Part shown: positions 2,096-63,935 of the stretch, in pieces
How the letters are laid out: each line of letters begins with the position of its first letter
How positions within the stretch are numbered: position 1 is the stretch's first letter
From: an uncultured bacterium
Lineage (GTDB): Bacteria; Bdellovibrionota; JACOXK01; 2-02-FULL-40-11
Direction: 5' to 3'
Assembly (NCBI GenBank): GCA_964392415.1
Contig: CAYMPL010000001.1
Coordinates: forward strand, 6,200 to 70,199
DNA length: 64,000 nt
Notes under the pieces: model-generated
The model's database searches: none
Told to the model about the DNA's origin: nothing
The model's input: only the letters and a program-made list of their open reading frames with translations
Translations under genes and position numbers: made by a program

Positions 2096-2947
2096 ATGAG
2101 AGAGAAGATGAAGCATTTTTTTCAAATAATAAAATTTGAATATTTTGTCTGGATTCTCTCGATTGTGTCTGTCTTTGCTCTGGCATACGACAATATCCGT
2201 CTCCATCTGGAACTTCTCGAATTTAAAGAGTCGCATCGGGGCTCCATTCAGATGGCATCTGAAATAAGAGAGCTCAAGTCCTCGGTGGCTGAAATCGATT
2301 CGGTTCTCAACAGACTCAATAAATTTTCATCTAAACTCAAAGTGCTTTCGCATATCAAAGATCAGTTTGAGGAGAGAGAGGCGATCAGGCAGGCGGCAAA
2401 AAGTACGCGCCGATCGACACGCGAGGCGGATCTCGATCGTGAAGAAGAACGCGACCTTCAAAAAATCCGGTTGCGGCTTCCTGATTTGCGATCTGAGTCC
2501 GATTTTCATGACAGAGTGCTCTTGGAATTGGTCGATTTTTATTCTCAAAGGCCGAATCTCGTGGCCGCGATTCCGGCCTTATTGCCTGCCCCGGGGCGTA
2601 TTACCTCGCCATTCGGTTTCCGGAAATTGCCGGCAGGGGGATGGCAGATCCATGAGGGGATTGATATTGCAGCCAATTTTGGAACAGAGGTCGTAGCCCC
2701 CGCGGATGGAATCGTTGAGGAAAGTCATTATTCACCCGGCTACGGGCGGTATGTTATTCTCAACCATGGCTACGGGCTAAAAACCAGATTTGCCCATGCT
2801 TCAAAGGTTCTTGTTAAAGCGGGGGAATGGATCAAGCGGGGGACACAGATTGCGCTGGTCGGCGGCTCTGGCCGCACTCGCGGCGTGCATCTTCACTATG
2901 AAATCAGCCTAAACGGCGTGCCGGTAGATCCTAGGGATTATATGTAG
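2096..2947 (+). CDS. M23 family metallopeptidase with N-terminal TM and coiled-coil region
   Basis: C-terminal HxxxD and HLHYEI motifs of the M23/LytM fold; RBS AAGGGGGA lies upstream of the ATG. Confidence 0.85.
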
Positions 2948-2992
2948 TCGCAAGCCATTTTCCCCTTCTTCGAAATGGTTCGGCGACCTTAT

Positions 2993-3751
2993 TTATCTCC
3001 TCTTCCCAAAGATTCCTTCCCCGACTCTTACTTGCGTCGCCCCCTCTTCAATCGCAATTTTAAAATCATGTGTCATTCCCATTGAAAGCTCCCTCAGCGA
3101 AAGATTTGGGAATGCTTTCTGAGTTTCCAATAATAATTCCCTCATCTTCCTAAAATAAGGGCGTGATTTTTCGGGGTCTTTAAAATAGGGGGGGATGGCC
3201 ATGAGCCCCTGGATATCCAAATAGGTCATTCTGGGCGGAGATTGTTCGAGAATGTCATTCTGAGGCTGAGGCTTGAAAATGTCATTCTGAGGCTCGAAGA
3301 GCCGAAGAATCTCATTTAAAAATGGAATAAGATTTTTAGGAAAAAGCCCTGATTTTGTTGTTTCTTCGCCAATATTGATTTGAATCAGAACTGGCAGACG
3401 GCGATTTTTCTTTTGCAGCTCCTGTTGAAGCTTTGTGGATAACTTTAGGCTATCAAGCGTTTGAATTTCTGAAATGGTATCCGTCAAATATTTGACTTTG
3501 TTCGTCTGAAGGTGGCCAATAAAAATCCATTTTGCGGCATTTCCCAGAATTTCCCATTTTTTGAGGAATTCCTGGACATGGTTTTCACCGAGATAGCTGA
3601 TTCCCGCATCCATCGCCAATTTGATCTTTTCGATCGGTTGTAATTTGGAAACAGCAATCAGCCGGATATCTTGAGGATTTTTTCCGATTTTTTTCGCGGT
3701 TTCAGAGATAATTTGTCGGACAGAGGCGATATTTTCTTTTATATCATTCAC
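2993..3751 (-). CDS. yggS: YggS-family pyridoxal-phosphate homeostasis protein (alanine racemase-fold); carries an in-frame insertion of the dispersed repeat element
   Basis: N-terminus [10 protein letters not shown]...GENHVQE matches YggS/PLPHP; the internal [17 protein letters not shown] stretch is encoded by repeat copies at 3254-3314. Confidence 0.85.
3254..3314. repeat. Dispersed repeat family copy (double head + hairpin core + tail), in frame inside yggS
   Basis: GTCATTCTGAGGCTGAGGCTTGAAAATGTCATTCTGAGGCTCGAAGAGCCGAAGAATCTCA. Confidence 0.8.
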
Positions 3752-3855
3752 AAGCAGGTAACAAACTATATTGCATTACCATTTGAAATAGCACGCGAAA
3801 ACTGTTTGACATTTCCTTGCGTTTTCCTGTAGCAGGAAAACTTGGACGGGACAAT

Positions 3856-3928
3856 GCCCCGGTAGCTCAGTCGGTAGAGCAGCGCCCTGAAAAGGCGCGT
3901 GTCGGCAGTTCGATTCTGCCCTGGGGCA
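3856..3928 (+). tRNA. tRNA-Phe (anticodon GAA)
   Basis: Cloverleaf read by eye: acceptor GCCCCGG/CTGGGGC, D arm TAGCTCAGTCGGTAGAGCA, anticodon stem GCGCC / loop CTGAAAA / GGCGC, T arm GGCAGTTCGATTCTGCC, discriminator A; no encoded CCA. Confidence 0.9.
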
Positions 3929-3936
3929 TTCCACCA

Positions 3937-5175
3937 TTAAAATTGACAGCTGATATCATAATTCAAATTATCAAATGCTATTCCATCACCAGAAGAATTT
4001 GTAATTTCAATCTTGCGAACAGAATTTAGAGTGTTTTGAATATTTGTATTTTGTCCCGATCCATTCTGTGGGGCGATATTTATTTCTTCAAGTAAGCTAT
4101 TGTTTTTGTCGTAAAGACGCACAATGGCGTTGCTCTCTACATCGATGAGAGAAAACCTGACATTAGAAGCATCAGCTAAAAAATTTATAATTAAAGGGTC
4201 GTCTTGATTTATACCCTGATTATTTGCCCCAAGAGCAAATGGTTGAGAAACAGGTTTTGCATCGCCTGATTGGCCTGGCCATTGTTCATTGATTAGCAAA
4301 GGATCTCCACGAGGGGATGAAAAAACAACGCCCTGTTTTTCATACTTCATCGTAATTTTCTGCCCTAGGATATTTTCGGTATCATCAAAAAATATGTTTT
4401 GGCGACAGAGAGCGGACTGATATTCTTCTTCTGGTACCTCTGGTGCAGGAGGTAATGTACCAGCACGTTGCTGCTCCAAAAGAAGAACCACTCTTTCTAA
4501 TTTTGAGACGATTTTTTCAAGTTTATGAATGATTCGCTCTGATGCATTCTTTTCTGCTCTCCAGAGCCCCTTTTTCTTTCCCCTGGCCTCTTCTTGTAAA
4601 GCTAAAAATCGATCCCGATATTTTACATTGGGAGGAATTGTCATAATGGAGCCATACCCCTCTTCTAAAATTTTGGCGTTCACAAATGTGCCGTCTTCCA
4701 GGAAAACATATGCAAGCAATCTTCCATAGCGATCTCTTTGATCAACATCAAATTCAAGACGGACTCTTTTGCCTTCGAGAAGATTTTTTGTAAATTCATA
4801 TGCTTCTTGCCCCAGCTCTTGAATTATCCTGATATCTTGTCCAGTTCTTCTGGCATCTTCATATAATTTGGAACTCTGAGATATTTCAGGGGTATCAATA
4901 CCAATAAATCTTACCTTTTCTCCGTTGGAGAGAACTATGGTGTCACCATCAATGACTCTTTCAACCATAAAAAATCCTGTTTCTGAAGGCGAAAGAGATT
5001 GCGTTTCAGGAGATGGTGGCGTCTGAATTTGTGGTTTATGGCAATGTCTTTCGCCTGTTCGGCTATCCCTGTGACAGCCGTCTTTGTCCGTTCGGCCTGA
5101 ATGGCAAATGGCCTCATTATTCAGAAAAAAAATAAAAATAAAAGCTCCCATGATTTTCCCAATGATCGATTTCAT
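3937..5175 (-). CDS. Secreted protein with central thermonuclease (SNase/micrococcal-nuclease-like) domain, His/Cys-rich N-region and uncharacterized C-terminal domain
   Basis: Signal peptide MKSIIGKIMGAFIFIFFL; SNase motifs VIDGDTIVL...VRFIGIDTPE...YGRLLAYVF. Confidence 0.65.
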   Translation of the reverse strand: MKSIIGKIMGAFIFIFFLNNEAICHSGRTDKDGCHRDSRTGERHCHKPQIQTPPSPETQSLSPSETGFFMVERVIDGDTIVLSNGEKVRFIGIDTPEISQSSKLYEDARRTGQDIRIIQELGQEAYEFTKNLLEGKRVRLEFDVDQRDRYGRLLAYVFLEDGTFVNAKILEEGYGSIMTIPPNVKYRDRFLALQEEARGKKKGLWRAEKNASERIIHKLEKIVSKLERVVLLLEQQRAGTLPPAPEVPEEEYQSALCRQNIFFDDTENILGQKITMKYEKQGVVFSSPRGDPLLINEQWPGQSGDAKPVSQPFALGANNQGINQDDPLIINFLADASNVRFSLIDVESNAIVRLYDKNNSLLEEINIAPQNGSGQNTNIQNTLNSVRKIEITNSSGDGIAFDNLNYDISCQF

Positions 5176-5543
5176 CTTTTTTCCCTCACTTCATTTAAAA
5201 TTAAAAGTTTACTCTCGAGTTGCTCCAATCTTTCTTCAAGCGCTGACAATCTCTCTTCGATCGTAAGATTTTGATAGCCAGTATCTATATCCTCTTCGGT
5301 TGATATCGAAGTCCCAGCTTTTTCAAGCTTGAATATTTTTTCTTCGAAATTGGTCACAAGGGGTTCAAATTGAGATGTAATGATGCTCTCAAGTTCTGCC
5401 TCACTGGTCGCTGGAGTAGGCTGAAAACTTTCTGGCGCAGTCTTTGAGGGGGCATCCCCTCCACATGAGAGAATCATTAAAATGGCGAAGAGGCTCATAC
5501 CTATTTGCCATAATTGTTTATTTATATAAAAAAAGATGTTCAT
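5172..5543 (-). CDS. Hypothetical lipoprotein with C-terminal coiled coil
   Basis: Signal peptide with LSCGG lipobox-like sequence; heptad-rich tail LEERLEQLESKLL; 4-nt overlap with the downstream nuclease gene. Confidence 0.4.
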   Translation of the reverse strand: MNIFFYINKQLWQIGMSLFAILMILSCGGDAPSKTAPESFQPTPATSEAELESIITSQFEPLVTNFEEKIFKLEKAGTSISTEEDIDTGYQNLTIEERLSALEERLEQLESKLLILNEVREKR

Positions 5544-5710
5544 TCTCCACCAACGTTCAGCTGATCCAAATAATGTTAATTATATGTCGAATTTTAATTT
5601 AGGTCAAACACACATTTAGAGATTATTTTTCCATTTTCAAAATAAATATAAGTGAACCCAAAACGACTGTCTCACTCTAGATTGGCACAGAGGGGGCTAT
5701 CAAACGATAT

Positions 5711-6052
5711 TTATTTACTCAAATTTTTTAATAACTTTTTTTCTTCAGCGGTAGGGAGTCCATACGCATCAAAGATACAAAGAAGATGAAGAATTATCCC
5801 TGGAATAATAAACAAAAAATAACCACCAATTACAAAGAAGAACCACAAAACACACCGAATAAATTTTCCACAATAAAGATGGCCAAAGCCAGGGAAAAAC
5901 ACACTTATTAATGCAGCTATTCCACCACTAGGTTTTACAGTTGCAAGTATAGTTTTAGATTTTTCATCTTTCAGGGGATGGCCACATGAAGGACATGACG
6001 TTGCCTTATCAGAAATTTCCTTGTTACATTCAGGACACTTTATTAGAGGCAT
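5711..6052 (-). CDS. Zinc-ribbon domain membrane protein (hypothetical)
   Basis: CPECN...CPSCGH zinc ribbon followed by two hydrophobic helices. Confidence 0.45.
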   Translation of the reverse strand: MPLIKCPECNKEISDKATSCPSCGHPLKDEKSKTILATVKPSGGIAALISVFFPGFGHLYCGKFIRCVLWFFFVIGGYFLFIIPGIILHLLCIFDAYGLPTAEEKKLLKNLSK

Positions 6053-6070
6053 TTTTTTAAAAATCCTTTT

Positions 6071-6463
6071 TTATTCATAAACAATGGCTGAGCCCGTGAG
6101 TTTTGTATGCCAGGAATTTTTAGATTGGATTTGAATGTCAATCACTGCATCGGCACCAGCTTTTCTTCCTTCTTCTTTGAGAAGCGGTACAACATCTTCA
6201 TAATCAACAGTCAAAAAAGCCATAGGAACAAATAAAAGAGCCCAAGACCAAAGCCAATTTCCTCCATTATCTTTCTGAGCGGTAATAACGCCCAGTTCTT
6301 TATATTTTACCTCATGGGGTGCAGTTCTATAAATTTCTACTTCTTGTCCTGGATTTTTTCTGGGATGCGGTCTTCCTGATGGCATAAATTTCGAAGAAGT
6401 AGCGCAAGAGAAAAGAAATAGAAGTATAGCACCTAAAATAATAAGTTTTCTTGGTTTCATCAT
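6071..6463 (-). CDS. Hypothetical lipoprotein (start trimmed to the MMKPRKLIILGAILLFLFSC signal peptide)
   Basis: RBS AGGAGGCT immediately upstream of the ATGATG at 6458-6463 (complement); lipobox LFSC; the longer ORF call to 6643 overlaps the HTH gene. Confidence 0.5.
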   Translation of the reverse strand: MMKPRKLIILGAILLFLFSCATSSKFMPSGRPHPRKNPGQEVEIYRTAPHEVKYKELGVITAQKDNGGNWLWSWALLFVPMAFLTVDYEDVVPLLKEEGRKAGADAVIDIQIQSKNSWHTKLTGSAIVYE

Positions 6464-6556
6464 AGCCTCCTTTATTCTGTTATATGGCTTATCGGTAAGT
6501 AAACACGAATCTTTAGAGACGTTATATTTATAGATTCGTGTCTTTATAATTGCAGT

Positions 6557-6769
6557 ATGGCTTTCGATATCTACCTTCGAAAGGTTGCAAATAATATACA
6601 AAGGGCAAGAAAAAAAGCAGGATTCACTCAAGAAAAGATGCAAGATTTTGGTTTTAATTATCGCTATTATCAGAAAATCGAAGGTGGCCAGGTAAATCTT
6701 ACATTGAAAACACTTTGGTTAATCGCCAAGGCTTTAAAATCATCTATAACCAATCTGACTCGTATTTAA
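6557..6769 (+). CDS. XRE-family helix-turn-helix transcriptional regulator
   Basis: 70 aa; QEKMQDFGFNYRYYQKIEGG matches the Cro/C1-type HTH pattern. Confidence 0.6.
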   Translation: MAFDIYLRKVANNIQRARKKAGFTQEKMQDFGFNYRYYQKIEGGQVNLTLKTLWLIAKALKSSITNLTRI

Positions 6770-6786
6770 TTTTGTGCTTGTTCGAT

Positions 6787-6830
6787 CTGAAAAGGCGCGT
6801 GTCGGCAGTTCGATTCTGCCCTGGGGCATT
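6787..6830 (+). repeat. Partial duplicate of the tRNA-Phe 3' half (attR-like direct repeat)
   Basis: Exact 44-nt match to 3887-3930. Confidence 0.85.
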
Positions 6831-6881
6831 CTGATTTCAGGCACTTAGCCGCAGACAAGAGCTAAAAACCATTTTCTCATC

Positions 6882-7139
6882 TTATCTGTACACCTCCCTC
6901 CTATGGCCTATTTTCACAATCAGAACGAGCAGAATCTTGTCAAGTATCTGGTAGATGACACGGTAATCTCCTATGCGAACGCGATAGAGATTTTCTTCCC
7001 CGGAAAGTTTCTCAACGCCATGGGGCCGTGGATTTTGGGCCAGATCGTCTATCTTCCTCTCGATTCTGTTTTGGACAGGGATCGGAAGACTATTAAGTTG
7101 TTTCCGGGCTTTTTTATCGATCTTTATTGTGTAAATCAT
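6882..7139 (-). CDS. RelE/ParE-family toxin
   Basis: 85 aa, ...LYRVRIGDYRVIY...HRREVYR RelE/ParE signature; lies immediately downstream of the antitoxin gene. Confidence 0.85.
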   Translation of the reverse strand: MIYTIKIDKKARKQLNSLPIPVQNRIERKIDDLAQNPRPHGVEKLSGEENLYRVRIGDYRVIYQILDKILLVLIVKIGHRREVYR

Positions 7140-11409: not shown

Positions 11410-11511
11410 ACAATTTTATCAGGTCAATGTTTAATATAAGTATTTGAAATTACTTATTTTTTATATAAATGCCTGTTGGCAGTTAATTTGCATGGATCTG
11501 CCAAAAGTCTT

Positions 11512-12201
11512 ATGAAAAAAAGGGGCATCATTATAATAGCCATCATTTCTCTGTTCGTTTCTATCTCCAAGGCGGCTCCTCAAGAGACTCAGGAAGAATT
11601 AACACAGGCCCATCTCGGTGAAACCGCCTTTTTACTGCGGAAAAAAGAACTTCTTTTAGGGCTTAGGCAAACAGCGTACGGAATTTTTGACTGGTTTTCA
11701 CTGGAGACGATTCCGCTTTATGATCTATTTGGATCGTGGAATATTTTTGGAAAATTAAAATTAGTTGCGATCGACCCTGTCAGTTTAGCGGCCCGTGCCG
11801 GTATTTTTTATCTGACGCTGGAAGAGCTTCCTGAAGCTCAGCCATCTTCAATGTACCGCGTCTATTTTGGCGGCACTTTATCAGCAAAAGTGGATGATTT
11901 CATCCATTATCATTTGAATATCAATAACACGAGCTTACATGGCAATATCATTTTTGGAAATGACATGATACACATTAAAAAACTTCTTAATATTGAAAAC
12001 GACCTTGAATATAAATTTAATGACCGGCGTTCCGTAGTGGGCGCCGCTGGTTATAATGTTTCAACCAAAAAGGTTTCATTAGGGGGGAGTCATGTGTGGA
12101 GATGGTCAACTTTTCATCTAAAGCTTGGACTCACCTTTAGAACAGGGATTTCCCGGGGGCTTACAATGCTCCCCTTCTTCGATCTTGGTATTCGGTTTTA
12201 A
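11512..12201 (+). CDS. Hypothetical secreted protein (possible outer-membrane beta-barrel)
   Basis: Signal peptide MKKRGIIIIAIISLFVSISKA; start trimmed from 11476 because a sigma-54-like motif occupies 11477-11492. Confidence 0.4.
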   Translation: MKKRGIIIIAIISLFVSISKAAPQETQEELTQAHLGETAFLLRKKELLLGLRQTAYGIFDWFSLETIPLYDLFGSWNIFGKLKLVAIDPVSLAARAGIFYLTLEELPEAQPSSMYRVYFGGTLSAKVDDFIHYHLNINNTSLHGNIIFGNDMIHIKKLLNIENDLEYKFNDRRSVVGAAGYNVSTKKVSLGGSHVWRWSTFHLKLGLTFRTGISRGLTMLPFFDLGIRF

Positions 12202-12202
12202 T

Positions 12203-13129
12203 GTGAAACCCTGCAGCTTCACAGGCGTAGGCTCTCTCCCCCATCGTTCTCCAAAAAGCGCCGTTTCCCACGTTTTTAAGCATTATGAAATCCCATTCCT
12301 CCCACAGCTGCCAAATGGGGGAATGGAGAAAGGGATGAGATATGCCGATTTTTCATGCCATGGAAAAAAGACTAATCTGGATCTTCAAAGAAAGGTGGAT
12401 GATTTTTTTTCTTACGCATCCTTGGATGATTTTCTAAATGAATATGATCGACAAAAGGTATTGAAAATTCAGATGATAGGCCCTTATACGGTGGGAAGGT
12501 TACTTCTTTGTAGAGACAGATTGACCGTCATTGACCACAAGGACATCCATCCACATTTTCTTCAAATTTATATTAAAAAAGCGGTGGAATTTCTGAGCTT
12601 GTTCGAAGCTAAGAATAAAATGTGGATTATTTTTGATGAACCGTTTTTGAATGAGCTTTCGGCGGGGGAGATTTTTTCTGGTTTGGATCGCATCATTCTC
12701 AAAATTGAGAAAAAAGTCGATGGTTCAAAATTTCTTTTTGGTCTTCATTCCTGCAATCGATGGACTCCGTCGCTTTTTTCTCAATTTTACGACACAAGGC
12801 TGCGGCTGATGAGCTTCGATGTGGAACTCGGCGGGAATGCGATTTTTGAGAATCGCCAAAAACTTTTCGAATATCTTAAAAAAGGATTTTTGCTGTGGGG
12901 GATTGTTCCGACGCAGAAGATTTACCGGACAATGAAAGGTGATTATTTTTTGCGCTATTTGCAAACGAAAAATTTGCAAAAGAAAGAGGTTCTGAATATA
13001 CTGAGTCGTTCTCATTTTACGCCCGCCTGTGGAACAGCCACGCTGCGGCTTAAAGATGAACAAACGATAGCTCGACGGCTACGGGAAATTTCGGTTGAAA
13101 CGAGACGCTATTACGAAAGGGGATCTTAA
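12203..13129 (+). CDS. Divergent MetE/UroD-superfamily paralog (resembles the MetE C-terminal catalytic domain); GTG start proposed
   Basis: VGSLP, IGPYTVG, IFDEPF, GLHSCNRW and FTPACGT blocks parallel GSFP, TGPYT, VDEPA, HxCY and DPDCG of the downstream core-MetE. Confidence 0.45.
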   Translation: MKPCSFTGVGSLPHRSPKSAVSHVFKHYEIPFLPQLPNGGMEKGMRYADFSCHGKKTNLDLQRKVDDFFSYASLDDFLNEYDRQKVLKIQMIGPYTVGRLLLCRDRLTVIDHKDIHPHFLQIYIKKAVEFLSLFEAKNKMWIIFDEPFLNELSAGEIFSGLDRIILKIEKKVDGSKFLFGLHSCNRWTPSLFSQFYDTRLRLMSFDVELGGNAIFENRQKLFEYLKKGFLLWGIVPTQKIYRTMKGDYFLRYLQTKNLQKKEVLNILSRSHFTPACGTATLRLKDEQTIARRLREISVETRRYYERGS

Positions 13130-13131
13130 AA

Positions 13132-14136
13132 ATGGATGTCGTTATTTCAAATCATAGTCATTATCCGCGAGTTGGGGATCTGAAAGATCAACTCAAATTA
13201 AGGAAGGCATATCATCAATACGATCATAAAAAGATCGATCTCGAAAAATTAAAAAAGGTCGAAGAAGAGACGATTCGGGATATCATTAAAGAGCAGCAAA
13301 CCGCAAAGCTCGATATTGTGACCGATGGTCTTATCAGATGGAATGACCCTGTTTCTTATTTCATGAAGCGCCTTGAGGGGGTTGAAATTGGGGGGCTTCT
13401 CAGATTCTTTGATACCAATTTTTATTTTAGACAGCCGCAAATTATGGGAAAGCTCTCTCTTAAAGAGCCTTGTTTTAAAAAAGATCTTCTCTTTTTGAGA
13501 GCTGGGACAGATGCCGATATAAAGCTTGTGCTGACAGGGCCCTATACGCTGGCGCTCCTCTCAAACATAGCCACGCCGCATTATCAATCGGTTGAGGAAG
13601 TTTCCGAAGCGCTGACAGAGCTGCTCGTCGAAGAGTTCAAATCGATTAAAGAGATGGGGATCCCCTATATTCAAATTGAGGAGCCCGGCTATCTTTTAAC
13701 TCCGCCAGACTGGAAGTGGGCATCCTCGTTGATTAAGAAGTTGGCGGCCCATCAGGGGAATTCAAAGCTGATCCTTGCCACTTATTTTGGTGACGCCGCT
13801 CCTTATTATTCAAAGCTTGAGAATCTTCCCGTCGATATTTTGGGATTCGATACAACCTATTCGCCGGGACTTCTAGAAAGTCTTCGAAAGGAAGGGAGCC
13901 GAAAGGAAATTCAACTTGGGCTTCTGGATGGCCGGAATACGAAACTTGAAAGTCCGGATGAAGTTGTCGGAGTCCTTCATTCTCTTGAAAAAACTTGGAG
14001 GCGGCTGATTCTTACCACCTCTTGCGGGCTTGAGTATCTTTCGAGAGACAGGGCTTTTGACAAGCTCAATCTCTTACAGGAAATTAAATATGCGTACCAG
14101 GGTAAAAACCAAACATCTAAAATCAAAAAGGGATAG
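13132..14136 (+). CDS. Stand-alone homolog of the N-terminal domain of cobalamin-independent methionine synthase MetE
   Basis: Aligns by eye with E. coli MetE residues 1-340: HYPRVG/FPRVG, FDTNFYF/FNTNYHY, LTGPYT/LGPVT, IQIEEP/VQIDEP, LATYFGD/LTTYFEG, TTSCGL/ASSCSL. Confidence 0.75.
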   Translation: MDVVISNHSHYPRVGDLKDQLKLRKAYHQYDHKKIDLEKLKKVEEETIRDIIKEQQTAKLDIVTDGLIRWNDPVSYFMKRLEGVEIGGLLRFFDTNFYFRQPQIMGKLSLKEPCFKKDLLFLRAGTDADIKLVLTGPYTLALLSNIATPHYQSVEEVSEALTELLVEEFKSIKEMGIPYIQIEEPGYLLTPPDWKWASSLIKKLAAHQGNSKLILATYFGDAAPYYSKLENLPVDILGFDTTYSPGLLESLRKEGSRKEIQLGLLDGRNTKLESPDEVVGVLHSLEKTWRRLILTTSCGLEYLSRDRAFDKLNLLQEIKYAYQGKNQTSKIKKG

Positions 14137-14140
14137 AGGT

Positions 14141-15148
14141 ATGAGAACAGAAGAAAACAAATTAAAAAATTTAGGGATTCAATTACCCATTTTTCCATTG
14201 ACTTCGGTCGGGAGTTTCCCAAAATTCGACTATATCAAGAAAGGACGGAGCTGCTTTGAAAAAGGGGAGATTGGCGCAAATGATCTCCTGACTCTTGAAA
14301 AAAAGGCGACAGAGGAGTGGATTCAATTTCAGGAAGAAATTGGAATCGATATTCTGGTCGATGGTGAAATGTATCGGGGGGATATGGTTGCCTATTTTGC
14401 TGAAAAACTCCCAGGCTTTAAAGAAGGGGGTTTTGTTCGATCGTATGGAAATCGATTTTACAAAAAGCCGGTCATTTCAGAGGCTGTCGGATGGGAGAAG
14501 CCGCTCACAGTAGATTGGTGGAAATTTGCGCAATCTTTGACTCGCAAACCGGTAAAGGGGATGCTCACCGGTCCCTATACCATTATGGATTGGTCCTTTA
14601 ATGAACATTATAAGGACCGTGAAGCAGCAGCGCTTGCATTGGCTAAGGTGATCCGAAAGGAAGTGGAGGCATTGATTGATGCCGGGGCAAAGATTATTCA
14701 GGTCGATGAGCCTGCCTGTTCTGTGCGCCCCAAAGAACTTCCGTTGGTCGTGAGGACGATGGATATTGTGACAAGAGATCTCCCGGCCTATTTTGTAACA
14801 CACATCTGTTATGGCGATTTTGAGAAAATATATCCGGAGATGAATGAAATTCCAGTCGACAACTATGATCTTGAAATGTCGAACAGTGAAAACGATCTGC
14901 TTAATTGTTTCAGAAAGGTTCATATGCCAAAGGATCTCTCGGCAGGGATTGTAGATGTTCACACGCATCAAATTGAAGAGCATGCTCTTTTAATGAAGCG
15001 TTTGCGTGATATCTTGGAAGTGGTTTCCCCCTCTCAGCTCTGGGTCGATCCCGATTGTGGGCTTAAGACGCGGACGGTCGACGAGGCGAAAGAGAAATTG
15101 AAAGCAGTGGTAAAAGCAGTGAAGGCGTTGAGGGCCCAGTCATCCTGA
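14141..15148 (+). CDS. metE: Core methionine synthase (MetE C-terminal catalytic domain only, with zinc/homocysteine-binding motifs)
   Basis: VGSFPK, KPVKGMLTGPYTI (identical block to E. coli MetE), IQVDEPA, THICYGDF (His/Cys ligands), VDPDCGLKTR; RBS GAGGT before the ATG at 14141. Confidence 0.85.
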   Translation: MRTEENKLKNLGIQLPIFPLTSVGSFPKFDYIKKGRSCFEKGEIGANDLLTLEKKATEEWIQFQEEIGIDILVDGEMYRGDMVAYFAEKLPGFKEGGFVRSYGNRFYKKPVISEAVGWEKPLTVDWWKFAQSLTRKPVKGMLTGPYTIMDWSFNEHYKDREAAALALAKVIRKEVEALIDAGAKIIQVDEPACSVRPKELPLVVRTMDIVTRDLPAYFVTHICYGDFEKIYPEMNEIPVDNYDLEMSNSENDLLNCFRKVHMPKDLSAGIVDVHTHQIEEHALLMKRLRDILEVVSPSQLWVDPDCGLKTRTVDEAKEKLKAVVKAVKALRAQSS

Positions 15149-22899: not shown

Positions 22900-22999
22900 T
22901 GGCGGAAGTGTATGGGAATCGAACCCACCACAGACATAGAGACTATGTCTGTCACTGGATTTGAAGTCCAGGAAGTACACCAGAAACTTAAACACTTCC
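22900..22999 (-). tRNA. selC: tRNA-Sec (selenocysteine tRNA, anticodon UCA), 100 nt including encoded CCA
   Basis: Reverse complement reads GGAAGTGT (8-bp acceptor stem pairing with ACACTTCC), anticodon stem-loop CTGGA-CTTCAAA-TCCAG (UCA), long variable arm TGACAGACATAGTCTCTATGTCTG, T arm GGGTTCGATTCCC, discriminator G, CCA. Confidence 0.85.
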
Positions 23000-36191: not shown

Positions 36192-36318
36192 AGATTCACC
36201 ATAGCGCCTCAAACCGTACCACAGGCCGATGTCAAATTTCAACATATTCTGGCTCATATTATTCTGGCTAAACAATATATTTGCTAAAATCGCCGTCTGA
36301 TATAAATTGGGAAATTCG

Positions 36319-37224
36319 ATGGAAAACTACAGGATTCCATATCTCAGGGAGCTCGAGTCCGAGAGTATTTATATTATTCGCGAGGCTCAAGCTGAATTTA
36401 AGAATCCGGTCATGCTCTATTCGATCGGCAAAGATTCGTCTGTGATGCTTCATCTGGCAAGAAAGGCCTTTGCGCCTGGCAAGATTCCTTTTCCTCTCCT
36501 GCATATCGATACGGGTTACAAATTCAGAGAGATGATTGAGTTTCGGGATTATTATACGAAAAAAATAGGGATTCGGCTGCTCGTTGAACGAAATGAAGAA
36601 ATGATCGCCAAGGGGATGCACCCTTCTCTCTATGGAACCGATCGATGCTGTGGTTTTTTAAAAACAAAGGCGCTGCTTTCCGCCCTTTCAAAACACAGAT
36701 TTGATGCAGCCTTTGGGGGGGCCAGGCGTGAAGAAGAAAAATCGAGGGCGAAAGAGAGAATATTTTCCGTTCGAAATGAATTTGGCGTCTGGGATCCCAA
36801 AAATCAGAGGCCGGAGCTTTGGCATCTCTACAACTGCAAGTTAAGGGGGGAAGAGACGATGCGTGTTTTCCCCCTCTCAAACTGGACGGAGGGGGATGTC
36901 TGGGACTACATCAAATTGGAAAATATCGAAGTGGTCCCTTTGTATTTCGCCAAAGAGCGTCCAATCGTCAGGCGAAGGGGGATGGTTATTCCGGTAGATG
37001 AGTCAACGCATTTAAAAACAGATGAAAAAATAGAGAAAAAAATGATTCGTTTCCGGTCGCTTGGCTGTTCCCCCTGCACAGGGGCGATCGAATCAAAAGC
37101 GGCAACGATTGATGAGATTTTGATGGAAGTGCTGGAAACGAAAAAATCGGAGAGAGAAAATCGGGTGATCGATTTTGGATCTGATAGTTCAATGGAAGAG
37201 AAAAAGAGAGAGGGATATTTTTAA
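36319..37224 (+). CDS. cysD: Sulfate adenylyltransferase subunit 2
   Basis: [28 protein letters not shown]-reductase-fold motifs; the alternative upstream ATG at 36307 is possible. Confidence 0.85.
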
Positions 37225-37226
37225 GG

Positions 37227-38518
37227 ATGGGATTTCCAATATCGGATCGGGAATTATTAAGGCTTACCACCGCGGGGAGCGTCGATGATGGAAAATCGAC
37301 CCTGATGGGGCGGCTCCTTCATGACTGCAGCAAAGTTTATGAAGATCAGCTGGAGGCGGCCCGTCAGACAAGCCTGCGAAAAGGGAATTCGGAGGTCGAT
37401 CTTTCGCTTCTGATGGATGGGCTCTCTTCCGAGCGTGAGCAGGGGATTACCATAGATGTTGCCTATCGTTATTTTACGACGCCGAAACGGAGATTCATTA
37501 TTGCCGATGTCCCTGGACACGAACAATATACAAGGAATATGGTGACCGGCGCTTCGAACGCCCATCTTGCGGTCATTCTTATCGATATAACGAAAGGGTT
37601 TCTCTTTCAGGCCAAACGGCATCTGGTCATTGCAACGCTTCTTCAGACGCCGCATCTTCTGATTGCGATGAATAAAATGGATCTCATCGGCTATGACGAA
37701 GGTGTTTATGAAAAAATAAAAGGCGAGATTTCGCAGTTTGTTTCGAAATTGGGCGTGAGGGATCTTCAGTTTATTCCCATGTCTTCTCTTAAGGGGGACA
37801 TGGTTGTGAAACGGCACGATCAGATGGATTGGTATGGGGGGTATACGCTGCTTCATTATTTGGAGAACCTTCACATATCGAGTGACCGGAATCTCATCGA
37901 TTTCAGATTTCCTGTTCAGCTTGTCATCCGCCCGGATGCTTCTTTTAGAGGTTATGCGGGGAGAATCGAAGGGGGGGTGATTCATCTGGGGGATGACATT
38001 GTCTCTCTCCCTTCCGGGAAAAAATCGAAAATCAGATCTATTTTAACCCCTGAAGGGGAAAAAACATACGCTTTTACCCCCCAGTCTGTGACACTTGTGT
38101 TGGAAGATGAAATTGATGCGAGTCGCGGGGATATGTTTGTGAGGCCAGAGAATATTCCGGATATTTCTCATGAATTTCAGGCGGCTGTTTTTTGGATGTC
38201 TGAGAGTCCTTTTGTCGAAAAAAAGAGCTATCTCATCAAACAGGGGACAAAAATAACCCGCGGTTATGCCAGTGAGCTGAGGTACCGGATTGACATCGGC
38301 GATCTCCATCGAAAAGAAGCAAAAGAACTGGCCTGTAACGAGGTGGGAAGGACGTTTATAAAAACCCATGAGCCGCTGATGTTTGATCCCTATGCGAAAA
38401 ACAGAAACACGGGCTGCTTTATTTTTATCGATGAACTGACTTATGAGACCGCAGGCGTCGGCATCATCTGGCACCGCTTTGCAAAATCGGATCACCTACA
38501 GTATCAGGAATTTAAGTC

Positions 38519-38522
<4 letters not shown>
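37227..38522 (+). CDS. cysN: Sulfate adenylyltransferase subunit 1 (GTPase)
   Basis: GSVDDGKST G1 motif, DVPGHEQY, NKMD. Confidence 0.85.
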
Positions 38523-40528
<2,006 letters not shown>

Positions 40529-45340: not shown

Positions 45341-45709
45341 ATGTACGAAATCATTGTAAAGGAGCATTTTTCAGCGGCCCACCAACTGCGTGATATTTCC
45401 GGAATGTGTGAAAATTTACACGGGCATAATTGGCGCGTGGATATTTCCGTTTCTTCTGAGATATTAAATGACATAGGAATTGTGGTTGATTTTAAGGTGG
45501 TCGAAGATACTTCTAAGGAAATCATAGATCGTCTGGATCATCAGATTTTAAACGAGCTTCCGATTTTTCAGGATCTCAATCCCTCCGCGGAAAATATTGC
45601 GCGTTACATTTGTGAAGAATTGAAACGAAAACTGAACTCTGATTCGTTTCGTGTTCGTAAGGTCACCGTTTGGGAAACCGATACTTACGGGGCAAGCTAT
45701 TCATGTTAA
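45341..45709 (+). CDS. queD: 6-carboxy-5,6,7,8-tetrahydropterin synthase
   Basis: CENLHGHNW zinc/catalytic motif of the PTPS/QueD family, about 120 aa. Confidence 0.8.
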   Translation: MYEIIVKEHFSAAHQLRDISGMCENLHGHNWRVDISVSSEILNDIGIVVDFKVVEDTSKEIIDRLDHQILNELPIFQDLNPSAENIARYICEELKRKLNSDSFRVRKVTVWETDTYGASYSC

Positions 45710-46485
45710 ATGATGTTCAAAATAGCCCAGACCACCGGGGAGTCCCTCTCCAGCAGGTAGGGGTCAAAGGGGTGCGCTATCCCATTAAAGTGAAAGATCG
45801 TCTGAATGGCTCTCAATTAACGATTGGGACATTTAATATGTATGTCGATTTGACTGACAAATATAAGGGGACTCACATGAGCCGGTTTATTGAGATCCTC
45901 AATCGCTATCATGACGCGATTGATGTTGAAAATTTCAATCCCATTTTAAAAGAGATGAGAAACCGGCTCGAGGCGGATATTTCCGTGCTCGAAGTTTCTT
46001 TCCCCTATTTTATCAAGAAAGCGGCGCCGGTCTCTCGGGCGGAGAGCCTCATGGAGTATTCGTGCCGTCTCTGGGGGAGGCAAGATTCGGAAAAGACTGA
46101 TTTTCTGATATCAGCTGAGGTTCCTGTGACAACCTTGTGCCCCTGTTCAAAAGAAATCAGTGAAAGAGGGGCGCATAATCAGCGGTCACATGTCATCTTG
46201 TCTATTCGTTCGAATGCCTTTGTCTGGCTTGAGGATTTAATTCGCGTTGCTGAAGACAGCGCAAGCGCAGAACTCTATCCGCTTTTAAAGCGCGTCGATG
46301 AGAAGGCGGTAACGGAAAGGGCTTATGATCATCCACGATTTGCTGAAGATGTGGTTCGTGAAGTTACACTCAGGCTCGACGATTGGTCTCAAATTCAGTG
46401 GTATTCGGTCGAGTGCGAGAATTTTGAATCGATCCATGGTCACAACGCGTACGCTTTTTTGAAAAAGGATAAATCATGTCATTAA
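45703..46485 (+). CDS. folE2: GTP cyclohydrolase FolE2-like (T-fold, DUF198)
   Basis: LPDVQN...VGVKGVRYPI N-terminal signature; ATGTTAA overlap with the queD stop. Confidence 0.65.
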   Translation: MLNDVQNSPDHRGVPLQQVGVKGVRYPIKVKDRLNGSQLTIGTFNMYVDLTDKYKGTHMSRFIEILNRYHDAIDVENFNPILKEMRNRLEADISVLEVSFPYFIKKAAPVSRAESLMEYSCRLWGRQDSEKTDFLISAEVPVTTLCPCSKEISERGAHNQRSHVILSIRSNAFVWLEDLIRVAEDSASAELYPLLKRVDEKAVTERAYDHPRFAEDVVREVTLRLDDWSQIQWYSVECENFESIHGHNAYAFLKKDKSCH

Positions 46486-47156
46486 GAAGCGTTGTTCTTC
46501 TTTCTTCTGGGCTCGACTCAACGGTTAATTTTTGCAAGGCGTTGAGGGAGACAGAGGTTGTTCTTTCACTGACATTTGATTATGGACAAAGGTCAGCCGT
46601 TTCAGAAATCTCTGCCGCGGCAAAAATTTCTGAAAAATATGGAATAAATCATCGTATCATTCGATTGGATTGGCTGAAGGAGATGACGCTGACATCCCTT
46701 GTGAATCGCTCTTTGGATATTCCTAAACTTTCTCCAGCTCATCTGGATAATCGTGAAATAACTTTAAAAAGCGCGGCCGAAGTTTGGGTTCCAAATCGAA
46801 ACGGCGTGTTTATTCATATCGCCGCAGCCATCGCGGAAGTGATGAGGGTAGAGTTCATTGTTGTCGGTTTTAATGCGGAAGAGGCAAAAACATTTCCAGA
46901 CAATAGTCAGGAATTTATCGACCGGGTTAACCAGAGCCTCGAGTTTTCAACGCTCACAAAACCGAAAGTGATCTGCTACACAGCTTCTTTTAACAAAAAA
47001 GAGATTGTTCAGCTCGGCCGCGAACTCAACGCCCCCTTTGAACTGATGTGGAGCTGTTATGAGGCGGGGGAGAAAATGTGCGGAAAATGTGAATCGTGTT
47101 TAAGATTTATGAGGGCGATTTCCGATGAAAATCGTGCAAACAAAATTTATAAATAA
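46476..47156 (+). CDS. queC: 7-cyano-7-deazaguanine synthase
   Basis: VVLLSSGLDSTV PP-loop, C-terminal CGKCESCLRFMRA zinc motif. Confidence 0.85.
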   Translation: MSLRSVVLLSSGLDSTVNFCKALRETEVVLSLTFDYGQRSAVSEISAAAKISEKYGINHRIIRLDWLKEMTLTSLVNRSLDIPKLSPAHLDNREITLKSAAEVWVPNRNGVFIHIAAAIAEVMRVEFIVVGFNAEEAKTFPDNSQEFIDRVNQSLEFSTLTKPKVICYTASFNKKEIVQLGRELNAPFELMWSCYEAGEKMCGKCESCLRFMRAISDENRANKIYK

Positions 47157-47685
47157 ACGAATTATCTATGATGGTACCCAGCTTGCCCCTCATTGGATCT
47201 ATAAAAACTTCGATATCTTAGGCGATGCCATCGTCGGCTTTATAGGACCTGCGGATGTCCCGCTCAAAAATATGGTCGATCTCGAGGATGTAAAATCCCA
47301 AAGCCCGATCTATTCCGAACTGATGCTTCATTTTATCGCTGAGTTTTTTGACACCGATCTCGAAAAAGCGATTTATCGCCAGCGGCTTCTCATGGTAATT
47401 ATGAAAGAATGTTTAGAAAAAAGGATTGGAAAAAGTCTTCAAAGACGAGGCGACGATCTTTTTGATGGAAAGAGAAAGCTCACCGTATCGATCGCAACAG
47501 CGTCGCCGGTTTCAGCGCTGATCCATGCGGGGATCAATATTAAGTCAAAAAACACCCCTGTCTTAACAGCGGGTTTGATTGATTATCAGCTTTCGGCAAA
47601 GTCTTTAGCTCTTGAAATTGTCTCTCTTTTCAAAAGAGAATGTGATTCGATTTGGAAAGCAAGATGCAAGGTTCAGGCAAGATAG
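47125..47685 (+). CDS. Conserved hypothetical protein embedded in the queuosine gene cluster
   Basis: 186 aa, overlaps the queC end; no recognisable radical-SAM (QueE) or QueF motif. Confidence 0.4.
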   Translation: MKIVQTKFINKRIIYDGTQLAPHWIYKNFDILGDAIVGFIGPADVPLKNMVDLEDVKSQSPIYSELMLHFIAEFFDTDLEKAIYRQRLLMVIMKECLEKRIGKSLQRRGDDLFDGKRKLTVSIATASPVSALIHAGINIKSKNTPVLTAGLIDYQLSAKSLALEIVSLFKRECDSIWKARCKVQAR

Positions 47686-62723: not shown

Positions 62724-62903
62724 ATGATTAAACAGGATGCCCGGCTTGTGGATAAACGGGTTATCAAAAGACATATCGCACATAATCTTCTTACAGAGAA
62801 GGAATTCAAGTCTTATCTTGCTTCGCTGAAGGATTCTTCTTCCTCAGCCGAAGAGATTGATATTAACGAAGATGATGCACGTAAGATTTTAGATAAATCT
62901 TAG
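62724..62903 (+). CDS. Small hypothetical protein (59 aa), not in the ORF track because it is under 60 aa
   Basis: RBS GGGGG 7 nt before the ATG; MIKQDARLVDKRVIKRH...; overlaps the selD 3' end by 15 nt. Confidence 0.25.
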   Translation: MIKQDARLVDKRVIKRHIAHNLLTEKEFKSYLASLKDSSSSAEEIDINEDDARKILDKS

Positions 62904-63935
62904 AATAGCCCGATCACTTCTAAAGACCGAACCAATCCGTCGGGATTCCTTTAAACCGGCCGCGTGAAATTTTTTAAGGATCGGGAGGGCTTCCTCCTCC
63001 GGCAAGCTGATGAAAAGCCCCCCTGATGTCTGGGGATCAAAGAAGAGCGTCTCCCATTCTTTTGAAAACGTTCTTTCAAACCAGATGGCATCCTTCACAT
63101 AGAGTCTATTCGTCCGGTCCGCGCGTGTAAGCACCCCTTTTTTTGCAAAATAGAGCGCTTCTTCATAGTACGGCAGGCAATCACTTTCGATCAAGAGCCC
63201 TTTGCTGCTTGCCTGAGCCAACTGAAAGGCATGTCCTGTCAGACCAAAACCGGTGATGTCGGTACAGGCATGGATGGTAAATCCCGCCATGATTTCGGCT
63301 GCTATTTTATTCAATTGGGTCATCCAATGGCAGACATATTCGATCGATTCTTTTGACGCCTTTTTCTTTTTGATCGCTGTGGTAAGAATTCCTGTTCCGA
63401 GCGGTTTTGTGAGAATCAGCGCGTCTCCCTCCTGGGCTCCTTTATTCGTATAAATTTTTTTTGGATGAATCAGCCCTGTCACAGCCATCCCATATTTGAG
63501 CTCAGGATCGGAAACGGTGTGTCCCCCCAGTACCACGACGCCTGCTTCCCAGGCTTTATCCTGCCCCCCAGAGAGAATTTTCTGAAATACTTCGATGGGG
63601 AGGCTGGAAGGAAAGGCGGCAACATTGAGCGCGGTTAAAGGATGTCCCCCCATCGCGTAGACATCGCTCAGCGCATTTGCCGCGGCAATTTGTCCATAAA
63701 TGTAGGGATCATCCACAATGGGCGTAAAAAAATCGACCGTCTGCACGAGGGCTATTTCATCCGAAATTTTATAAACGCCGGCATCGTCGGCCGTCTCCGC
63801 CCCAACCAGAAGGTTTGGATCCGAAGGTGTTTTTAGATGAGCAATAATCTGCCGCAACTCCGTTGGGCTGAATTTAGAGGCTCAACCGGCGCATTTCACT
63901 TTTTCAGTGAGGCGCCAAATATCTTCTTTCGTCAT
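62889..63935 (-). CDS. selD: Selenide, water dikinase (selenophosphate synthetase) with an in-frame UGA selenocysteine codon at complement(63882..63884); N-terminus extended relative to the ORF track
   Basis: Reverse translation MTKEDIWRLTEKVKCAG-[TGA]-ASKFSPTELRQIIAHL...DPNLLVG aligns with E. coli SelD SIRLTQYSHGAGC(17)GCKISPKVLETIL...DPNLLVG, placing TGA at the catalytic Cys17 position. Confidence 0.85.

Follow-up and report, generated by a model that had tools for sequence, protein, structure and literature searches.

Three adjacent genes of an uncultured groundwater member of the Bdellovibrionota raise the question of why a single locus should encode three methionine synthase-type barrels, and which methyl donors they would serve. 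The genes, here called A, B and C, lie on the forward strand of contig CAYMPL010000001.1 (assembly GCA_964392415.1), within the 64,000-nt stretch (positions 6,200 to 70,199) that was analysed as a whole and is hereafter called the window. They nearly abut, and all three encode barrels of the superfamily of MetE, the cobalamin-independent methionine synthase. Methionine synthesis is the entry to the methyl cycle, and the methyl donor used sets the dependence on folate and cobamides. An earlier interpretation made from the sequence alone (the sequence-only reading) had described the genes as a MetE divided into an N-domain gene and a core gene, preceded by a third divergent paralog; all three open reading frames (ORFs) were found on this strand at the positions given there. 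The reading favoured here, with moderate confidence, is a split MetE made up of B and C, next to which A would act as a second homocysteine (thiol) S-methyltransferase, one independent of folate.

Gene B extends from an ATG to a TAG codon, and gene C starts with an ATG in a different frame, 4 nt apart from B, with AGAGG five bases upstream of its start (Table 1). Two different frames with just 4 nt between them could also result from an assembly or sequencing frameshift in one ordinary metE, the error that the sequence-only reading had named as fatal to its own proposal. However, the same stop and restart occur in independent NCBI, ENA, JGI and Logan assemblies at 55–96% protein identity and with differing junction spacings, B ends in a conserved C-terminal tail of its own, C opens with a separate start codon preceded by a ribosome-binding site, and the resemblance of B to the N barrel of fused MetE is only distant. 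On 11 distinct related contigs from these four sources the genes follow one another as A-B-C with unchanged junctions; across these contigs the identity of gene A ranges from 75% to 34% and that of gene C is at least 69%. The adjacency of B and C is kept in every locus examined, and distant B-C pairs are still two ORFs with different junctions: in contigs L009 and L017 a 1-nt spacer separates the two, and in a Nitrospiria contig they overlap by 4 nt. Ratios of non-synonymous to synonymous substitution rates (dN/dS, Nei-Gojobori) are 0.15–0.28 for A, 0.07–0.24 for B and 0.05–0.13 for C; all three genes are under purifying selection. Because the split is conserved with varying junctions and dN/dS is low in all three genes, a frameshift artefact is practically excluded, and B and C stand as separate genes.

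The GTG start of gene A, one base past the stop of the gene upstream, is backed by an identical 308-aa NCBI protein (P0001) and by an ATG at the equivalent position in contig L002; an exact copy of the gene A product is annotated as a hypothetical protein in a metagenome-assembled genome (MAG) of a “Deltaproteobacteria bacterium.” Since the coding sequences are nearly abutting, A, B and C are inferred to be co-transcribed as one three-gene unit. The boundaries of A vary in places: in one sub-lineage (L002, positions 5477–6385, and also proteins P0005 and P0006) its frame extends 22 codons beyond the ERGS at which it usually ends and shares 65 nt with the beginning of B, and on a short MAG contig (L016, positions 2779–3487) the A homolog matches in two pieces, residues 3–116 and then the rest, perhaps owing to a frameshift or misassembly.

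The split itself is already known, a point of which the sequence-only reading was unaware, and the B-C part of the locus is thus not a new arrangement. Split MetE was defined by Price et al. (2021; PLoS Genet, PMC7857596) by PF1268/PF1269 of Pyrococcus furiosus and conserved adjacent gene pairs, with AKJ63_00345:AKJ63_00350 of MSBL1 among those named; in that survey its hosts were mainly Halobacteria and Thermoprotei, plus one Sulfobacillus, and methyl-pterin donors were predicted. The same work requires of the N component a length of no more than 400 aa and a Meth_synt_1 score that lies above the cutoff and also above the score for Meth_synt_2. These are the two models with which the sequence-only reading had proposed to check the genes. 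Gene B (334 aa) matches both, at 104.1 bits (E = 1.4e-29; cutoff 27) for Meth_synt_1 and 71.9 bits (E = 7.5e-20) for Meth_synt_2. For the catalytic component, likewise limited to 400 aa, the requirement is a phmmer score of 200 bits or more against PF1269 of P. furiosus (PMC7857596). As proxies for that score, gene C (335 aa) reaches 271.7 bits for Meth_synt_2 (E = 1.2e-80) and 380.8 bits for the NCBIfam model PRK04326 “methionine synthase,” just below its cutoff of 406. Fused MetE, defined by TIGR01371 and one chain of at least 676 aa with both barrels, does not describe these genes, which reach 318 bits (C) and 102 bits (B) against a cutoff of 929.95. Homologs of gene B form more than 1800 clusters, including AKJ63_00345 (P0081; 42% identity, E = 5.6e-77), and are also present in MAGs of Rokubacteria, NC10, Nitrospiria, Acidobacteria and Hadarchaeales. 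Many uncultured bacteria have B and C as a pair with no gene A; in one Nitrospiria contig such a pair comes immediately after the genes of S-adenosylmethionine (SAM) synthetase and S-adenosylhomocysteine hydrolase.

Residues were mapped by HMMER alignment onto the MetE of Thermotoga maritima as described in its structure paper (PMC539065), with the coordinates verified. Gene C aligns to residues 421–762 of that chain and contains a KPVKGMLTGP block identical to it. The predicted zinc ligands H221, C223, E245 and C306 and the predicted homocysteine contacts S25, E76 and D189 are the His-Cys-Glu-Cys and Ser, Glu, Asp sets of a split-MetE catalytic subunit, and the description of C as a full catalytic barrel is borne out. 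On the pterin side, the alignment places a DMV loop at residues 81–83, the pterin-stacking W151 (Trp539) and R105 and K108 (Arg493 and Arg496), which would contact the glutamate tail. In two distant bacterial split-MetE catalytic subunits (L009, positions 1149–2156, and L017, positions 5989–6996) Ala takes the place of the Glu zinc ligand (DLAISHS vs DLEMSNS), and the other ligands are kept.

Gene B lacks the HxC and Glu zinc ligands and carries hallmarks of the N barrel: an FFDTNFY motif, Y218-F219 (Tyr232-Tyr233 in T. maritima numbering), C298 (Cys309) and basic residues at both N-barrel folate contacts, R24 for Lys18 and R91 for Lys104. The earlier alignment of B with the N barrel of MetE holds as regards these features and the lost zinc ligands, but the B-family profile (alignment A4) scores 137.6 bits on the catalytic barrel of T. 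maritima MetE and 62.5 bits on its N barrel. This more than twofold difference raises the question of a common origin of split-MetE N subunits and the fused N barrel.

Taken together, the gene pair is very probably a bacterial member of the split-MetE system, as judged from adjacency, homology and residues. The two separate polypeptides, the non-catalytic N barrel B and the zinc/homocysteine barrel C, would reassemble face to face. Gene C would activate homocysteine at its His221-Cys223-Glu245-Cys306 zinc site, and the cleft between Trp151, Arg105, Lys108 and the DMV loop of C and Arg24 and Arg91 of B would accommodate the methyl-pterin donor, presumably 5-methyl-tetrahydrofolate polyglutamate. 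The earlier suggestion that a separate N domain may provide folate dependence in trans coincides with the prediction of Price et al. (2021) for split MetE and fits the conserved folate-contact residues.

Gene A has no Pfam or NCBIfam assignment; its best Pfam match is a sub-threshold one to Meth_synt_1 (E = 0.056). NCBIfam contains no model for the A family nor for the MesB group of core methionine synthases, and the sequence profiles of both gave no match against PDB. The A family is rare, with six clusters among 5.8 billion proteins and eight representatives at E < 1e-30 among 1.84 billion, and among 185,579 species genomes only 5 carry it, each a “Deltaproteobacteria” MAG from groundwater. 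It is located directly upstream of B-C, with abutting or overlapping coding sequences, in 11 of 11 distinct loci. An AlphaFold2 model of gene A built from a 96-sequence alignment has a predicted local distance difference test (pLDDT) score of 93 (51 from five sequences) and matches the folds of MetE, MesD, MtaA and UroD. The predicted structure confirms a MetE-type barrel for A, which the sequence-only reading had called UroD/MetE-like, and removes the doubt that the fold might be lacking. Gene A shows neither a significant URO-D match (PF01208) nor a closest structural similarity to UroD/MtaA. Profile-profile comparison with hhalign gave a probability of 3% against a shallow alignment of C, though the motifs lined up, an E value of 3e-7 against the B family, and a probability of 100% (E = 3e-49, 307 columns) against the MesB group. 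The label of a third divergent paralog is correct as to the superfamily fold, but A is a distant relative of MesB-type enzymes rather than a recent paralog of B or C.

The distant homologs of gene A are proteins of about 343 aa named “methionine synthase” by NCBI. An authentic MesB was recovered via the published cloning primer for cbdbA481 and located in a 465-kb metagenome contig; its ORF comprises 343 aa, ends with KHGTV as the reverse primer predicts, and contains H215, C217, D236 and C312, the published zinc ligands of MesB (Deobald et al., 2020). Membership of MesB requires at least 130 bits in phmmer against the characterised Dehalococcoides enzyme (173 bits in the Methods of that paper; Price et al., 2021, PMC7857596). 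Against the authentic sequence, the 118 members of the MesB group all score 220–352 bits and are therefore MesB by this threshold. The corresponding scores are 42.4 bits for gene A, 26–60 for its family, 1.1 for B and 3.9 for C. Gene A is 23% identical to MesB, and BLASTP aligns its H182, C184, D206 and C276 to the four MesB ligands, giving the same predicted His-Cys-Asp-Cys set; S11 and D145 correspond to the homocysteine-binding Ser433 and Asp599 of Escherichia coli MetE. Because A scores only 42.4 bits against a threshold of at least 130, yet shares the active-site residues, it is a distinct family with a predicted MesB-like active site that lies below the limit of MesB membership.

Within the A family, the residues that remain invariant down to 33% identity include G10, S11, P13, D145-E146-P147, H182, C184, D206, C276 and G277. 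Alignment A5, with 40 sequences, likewise shows G10, S11 and P13 as invariant, L12 is almost so in alignments A2 and A6, and C276 remains nearly invariant when the MesB group is included. Folate-contact elements are absent from gene A.

Table 1. Genes of the three-barrel locus and predicted active-site elements of gene A (window coordinates).
Feature	Position	Strand	Assignment and basis
Gene A	12203..13129	+	308-aa single (beta/alpha)8 barrel; rare unannotated family, distant kin of MesB core methionine synthases
Gene B	13132..14136	+	334-aa predicted non-catalytic N-barrel subunit of split MetE; Pfam/NCBIfam, homologs, T. maritima alignment
Gene C	14141..15148	+	335-aa predicted catalytic zinc/homocysteine barrel subunit of split MetE; Meth_synt_2, PRK04326, T. 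maritima alignment
Gene A G10-S11-L12-P13	12230..12241	+	S11 corresponds to homocysteine carboxylate-binding Ser433 of E. coli MetE (role: Price et al., 2021, PMC7857596)
Gene A D145-E146-P147	12635..12643	+	D145 corresponds to homocysteine amino-group ligand Asp599 of E. coli MetE; invariant; aligned by hhalign with DEP of C and MesB
Gene A H182-S-C184	12746..12754	+	Predicted zinc ligands 1 and 2; H182 and C184 invariant; align to MesB H215 and C217 and to HxC of C
Gene A D206	12818..12820	+	Predicted third zinc ligand; invariant; Asp as in MesB (D236), Glu in MetE
Gene A C276 in PACG	13028..13030	+	Predicted fourth zinc ligand; aligns to MesB C312

Gene A of the window is a mosaic, with the boundary at about position 12700. 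In the 5′ part, about 55% of the gene (12203–12700), its synonymous divergence from contigs L001 and L004 is 1.2–1.5, and in the 3′ part of A, in B and C (12700–15148) and in the upstream gene it is only 0.23–0.25; the divergence between L001 and L004 is uniform. This pattern points to replacement of the 5′ half of the gene, including the variable beta1-beta2 excursion, by recombination with a divergent allele. A compensated frameshift was tested as the cause of the odd residues 38–72 and rejected.

The presence of a complete His-Cys-Asp-Cys zinc site together with the homocysteine-binding Ser and Asp suggests that A is probably a catalyst in its own right. By analogy with core methionine synthases, it could take the methyl group from a non-folate donor such as a methyl-corrinoid and, co-expressed with the split MetE, provide an alternative route to methionine. 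Its assignment as a zinc-dependent homocysteine methyltransferase with a non-folate donor is tentative. Several facts weigh against this picture of the locus. Neither the scanned ORFs of the window nor the flanks of related loci yielded a gene for a corrinoid protein, for the Wood-Ljungdahl pathway, or for metF or metH; the scan of the window covered nearly all ORFs of at least 150 aa, with four co-directional ORFs and the opposite-strand ORFs overlapping them lying outside it. The corrinoid-protein gene that the sequence-only reading had proposed to look for was not found in these 64 kb. [quoted passage not shown] The beta1-beta2 excursion of A is short and variable, and the window's own copy has Lys43 and Ala48 where its relatives show nearly invariant Glu and Gln. 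As for B-C, no residue of C clearly corresponds to Glu583, a pterin contact in T. maritima MetE. Split MetE is so far a proposal that no assay has addressed, its methyl donor is a prediction, and the evidence for a complex in the cited literature is only the co-fractionation of PF1268 and PF1269 (PMC7857596).

It is conceivable that B-C does not use methyl-folate at all, C acting, like MesA, as a core methionine synthase whose donor is a corrinoid or another compound, and B as a scaffold without a folate role. MesA is about 38% identical to split-MetE catalytic subunits (PMC7857596), C matches the methionine synthase model PRK00957 with 178 bits, and this possibility would also accommodate the unclear Glu583 equivalent and the closer profile score of B to catalytic barrels than to MetE N barrels. 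It is nevertheless very improbable: C retains the DMV loop, the Trp that stacks on the pterin and the two basic residues for the glutamate tail, B retains the basic residues at both N-barrel folate contacts, and MesA is confined to methanogens (PMC7857596). The role of A admits more latitude. It might be a third subunit of the split MetE, either a second catalytic barrel docking on B in place of C, so that A-B and C-B double barrels would have different methyl donors or acceptors, or a structural, regulatory or zinc-handling partner of B-C. The strict position of the A family upstream of B-C agrees with such a role, and MesB proper never adjoins B or C in the loci examined. The beta1-beta2 excursion bears donor-binding elements in MetE and is shortened and variable in A, so these elements might come in trans. 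A third-subunit role is nonetheless unlikely, given that thousands of B-C pairs do without A, and that A keeps the full catalytic motif set expected of an autonomous core enzyme.

Rather improbable is a looser link to methionine synthesis, in which A would be a zinc-dependent methyltransferase for another thiol or a demethylating enzyme like the MtaA, MtbA and MtsA types. Distinctly improbable, finally, is that the three genes form one three-barrel methionine synthase system, in which B would pair with C for folate-dependent synthesis or with A, as a fifth core family, for another donor. In that case the cell could switch its methyl source on the same scaffold, and the recombinational replacement of the 5′ half of A could be seen as diversification of the donor-binding side. 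Weighing these possibilities, a split MetE accompanied by a separate, folate-independent methyltransferase remains the favoured reading.

The surroundings of the locus were analysed in the window and in related loci. A scan for riboswitches (cobalamin, SAM or any other kind) found none in the window or in 10 related loci, and promoter and terminator scans remained at background level. The gene upstream of A (11476–12201, + strand), which ends one base before the start of A, encodes a 241-aa protein without a Pfam match, with a hydrophobic N terminus and a C-terminal Phe as in outer-membrane proteins. It is conserved only in the closest relatives; deeper relatives have an unrelated protein of about 680 aa, also without a Pfam match, in this position. 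Its membership in the A-B-C unit was considered and rejected, as it is not conserved between sub-clades. Downstream, genes for an S41 peptidase, an EI24/CysZ-like protein and ArsA-like proteins are syntenic and show no evident functional link to the three barrels.

Elsewhere in the window, a selenocysteine tRNA (22904–22999, − strand; Rfam, 71.5 bits) is encoded, and therefore the organism uses selenoproteins; an AIRS-family gene (62889–63857, − strand) could be selD. A sulfate-activation cluster (36307–39109, + strand) comprises a CysD-like gene of the PAPS_reduct family, a CysN-like GTPase gene and an adenylylsulfate (APS) kinase gene, followed by a tRNA-guanine transglycosylase gene. Genes for folE2 (GTP cyclohydrolase IB), queC and a DUF366 protein form another cluster (45670–47685, + strand), which bears on the metabolism of pterins and 7-deazaguanine.

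The neighbourhoods of four MesB-group proteins were checked for a conserved partner: one lies in a metV-metF/Hdr/Wood-Ljungdahl-type cluster, and the others were uninformative. In Candidatus Oleimmundimicrobium (L010, positions 2736–7062) a MesB-group gene directly follows DUF5981, MTHFR and Hdr-like genes and is located near a Pterin_bind/CdhD gene, a neighbourhood that fits the proposed link of MesB to one-carbon and corrinoid metabolism.

What the locus extends is the known breadth of split MetE in bacteria: the system is widespread in uncultured Nitrospiria, Rokubacteria, NC10, Acidobacteria and the “Deltaproteobacteria” clade described here, which matters to tools for finding pathway gaps such as GapMind. 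The papers found contain no description of the A family or of the conserved A-B-C operon. With its predicted MesB-style zinc site intact and its strict link to split MetE, A is a candidate fifth family of core methionine-synthase-like enzymes. If it is active with a non-folate donor, the operon would unite two methyl-donor routes in one small natural locus and would provide a handle on the role of distant MesB-like proteins, left open by Price et al.

Overall, B and C resemble the published split MetE in consisting of two adjacent genes of about 330 aa, one for a Meth_synt_1-type non-catalytic barrel and the other for a Meth_synt_2 barrel with zinc and homocysteine residues. The differences concern the host, an uncultured bacterium here and almost only archaea plus one Sulfobacillus in the published survey, and the third barrel gene preceding the pair, which is not described for split MetE. 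Like fused MetE (TIGR01371; T. maritima, 1T7L/1XPG; E. coli MetE), B and C together provide both barrels, the zinc ligands and the homocysteine, pterin and glutamate-tail contacts; unlike it, they are two polypeptides without the 35-residue linker, and B has diverged far more from its counterpart in the fused enzyme, the N barrel, than C has from the C barrel. Gene A shares with MesB and core MetE (cbdbA481, Deobald et al., 2020; DET0516, Price et al., 2021) a single barrel with no N domain, the His-Cys-Asp-Cys pattern at similar spacing and the GS-P, DEP, WGIVPT and P-x-CG motifs. It is, however, 35 residues shorter, mostly in the beta1-beta2 excursion, and is located in an operon with another methionine synthase, with no Wood-Ljungdahl or corrinoid genes seen nearby; around MesB proper, no B or C was found in the loci examined. 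From MesD (PDB 3RPD), which acts with MesX, gene A is more remote: no DUF1852 was found among the scanned window ORFs or the called genes of related loci, the two proteins are 14% identical, and MesD has a Glu ligand and needs its DUF1852 partner and oxygen.

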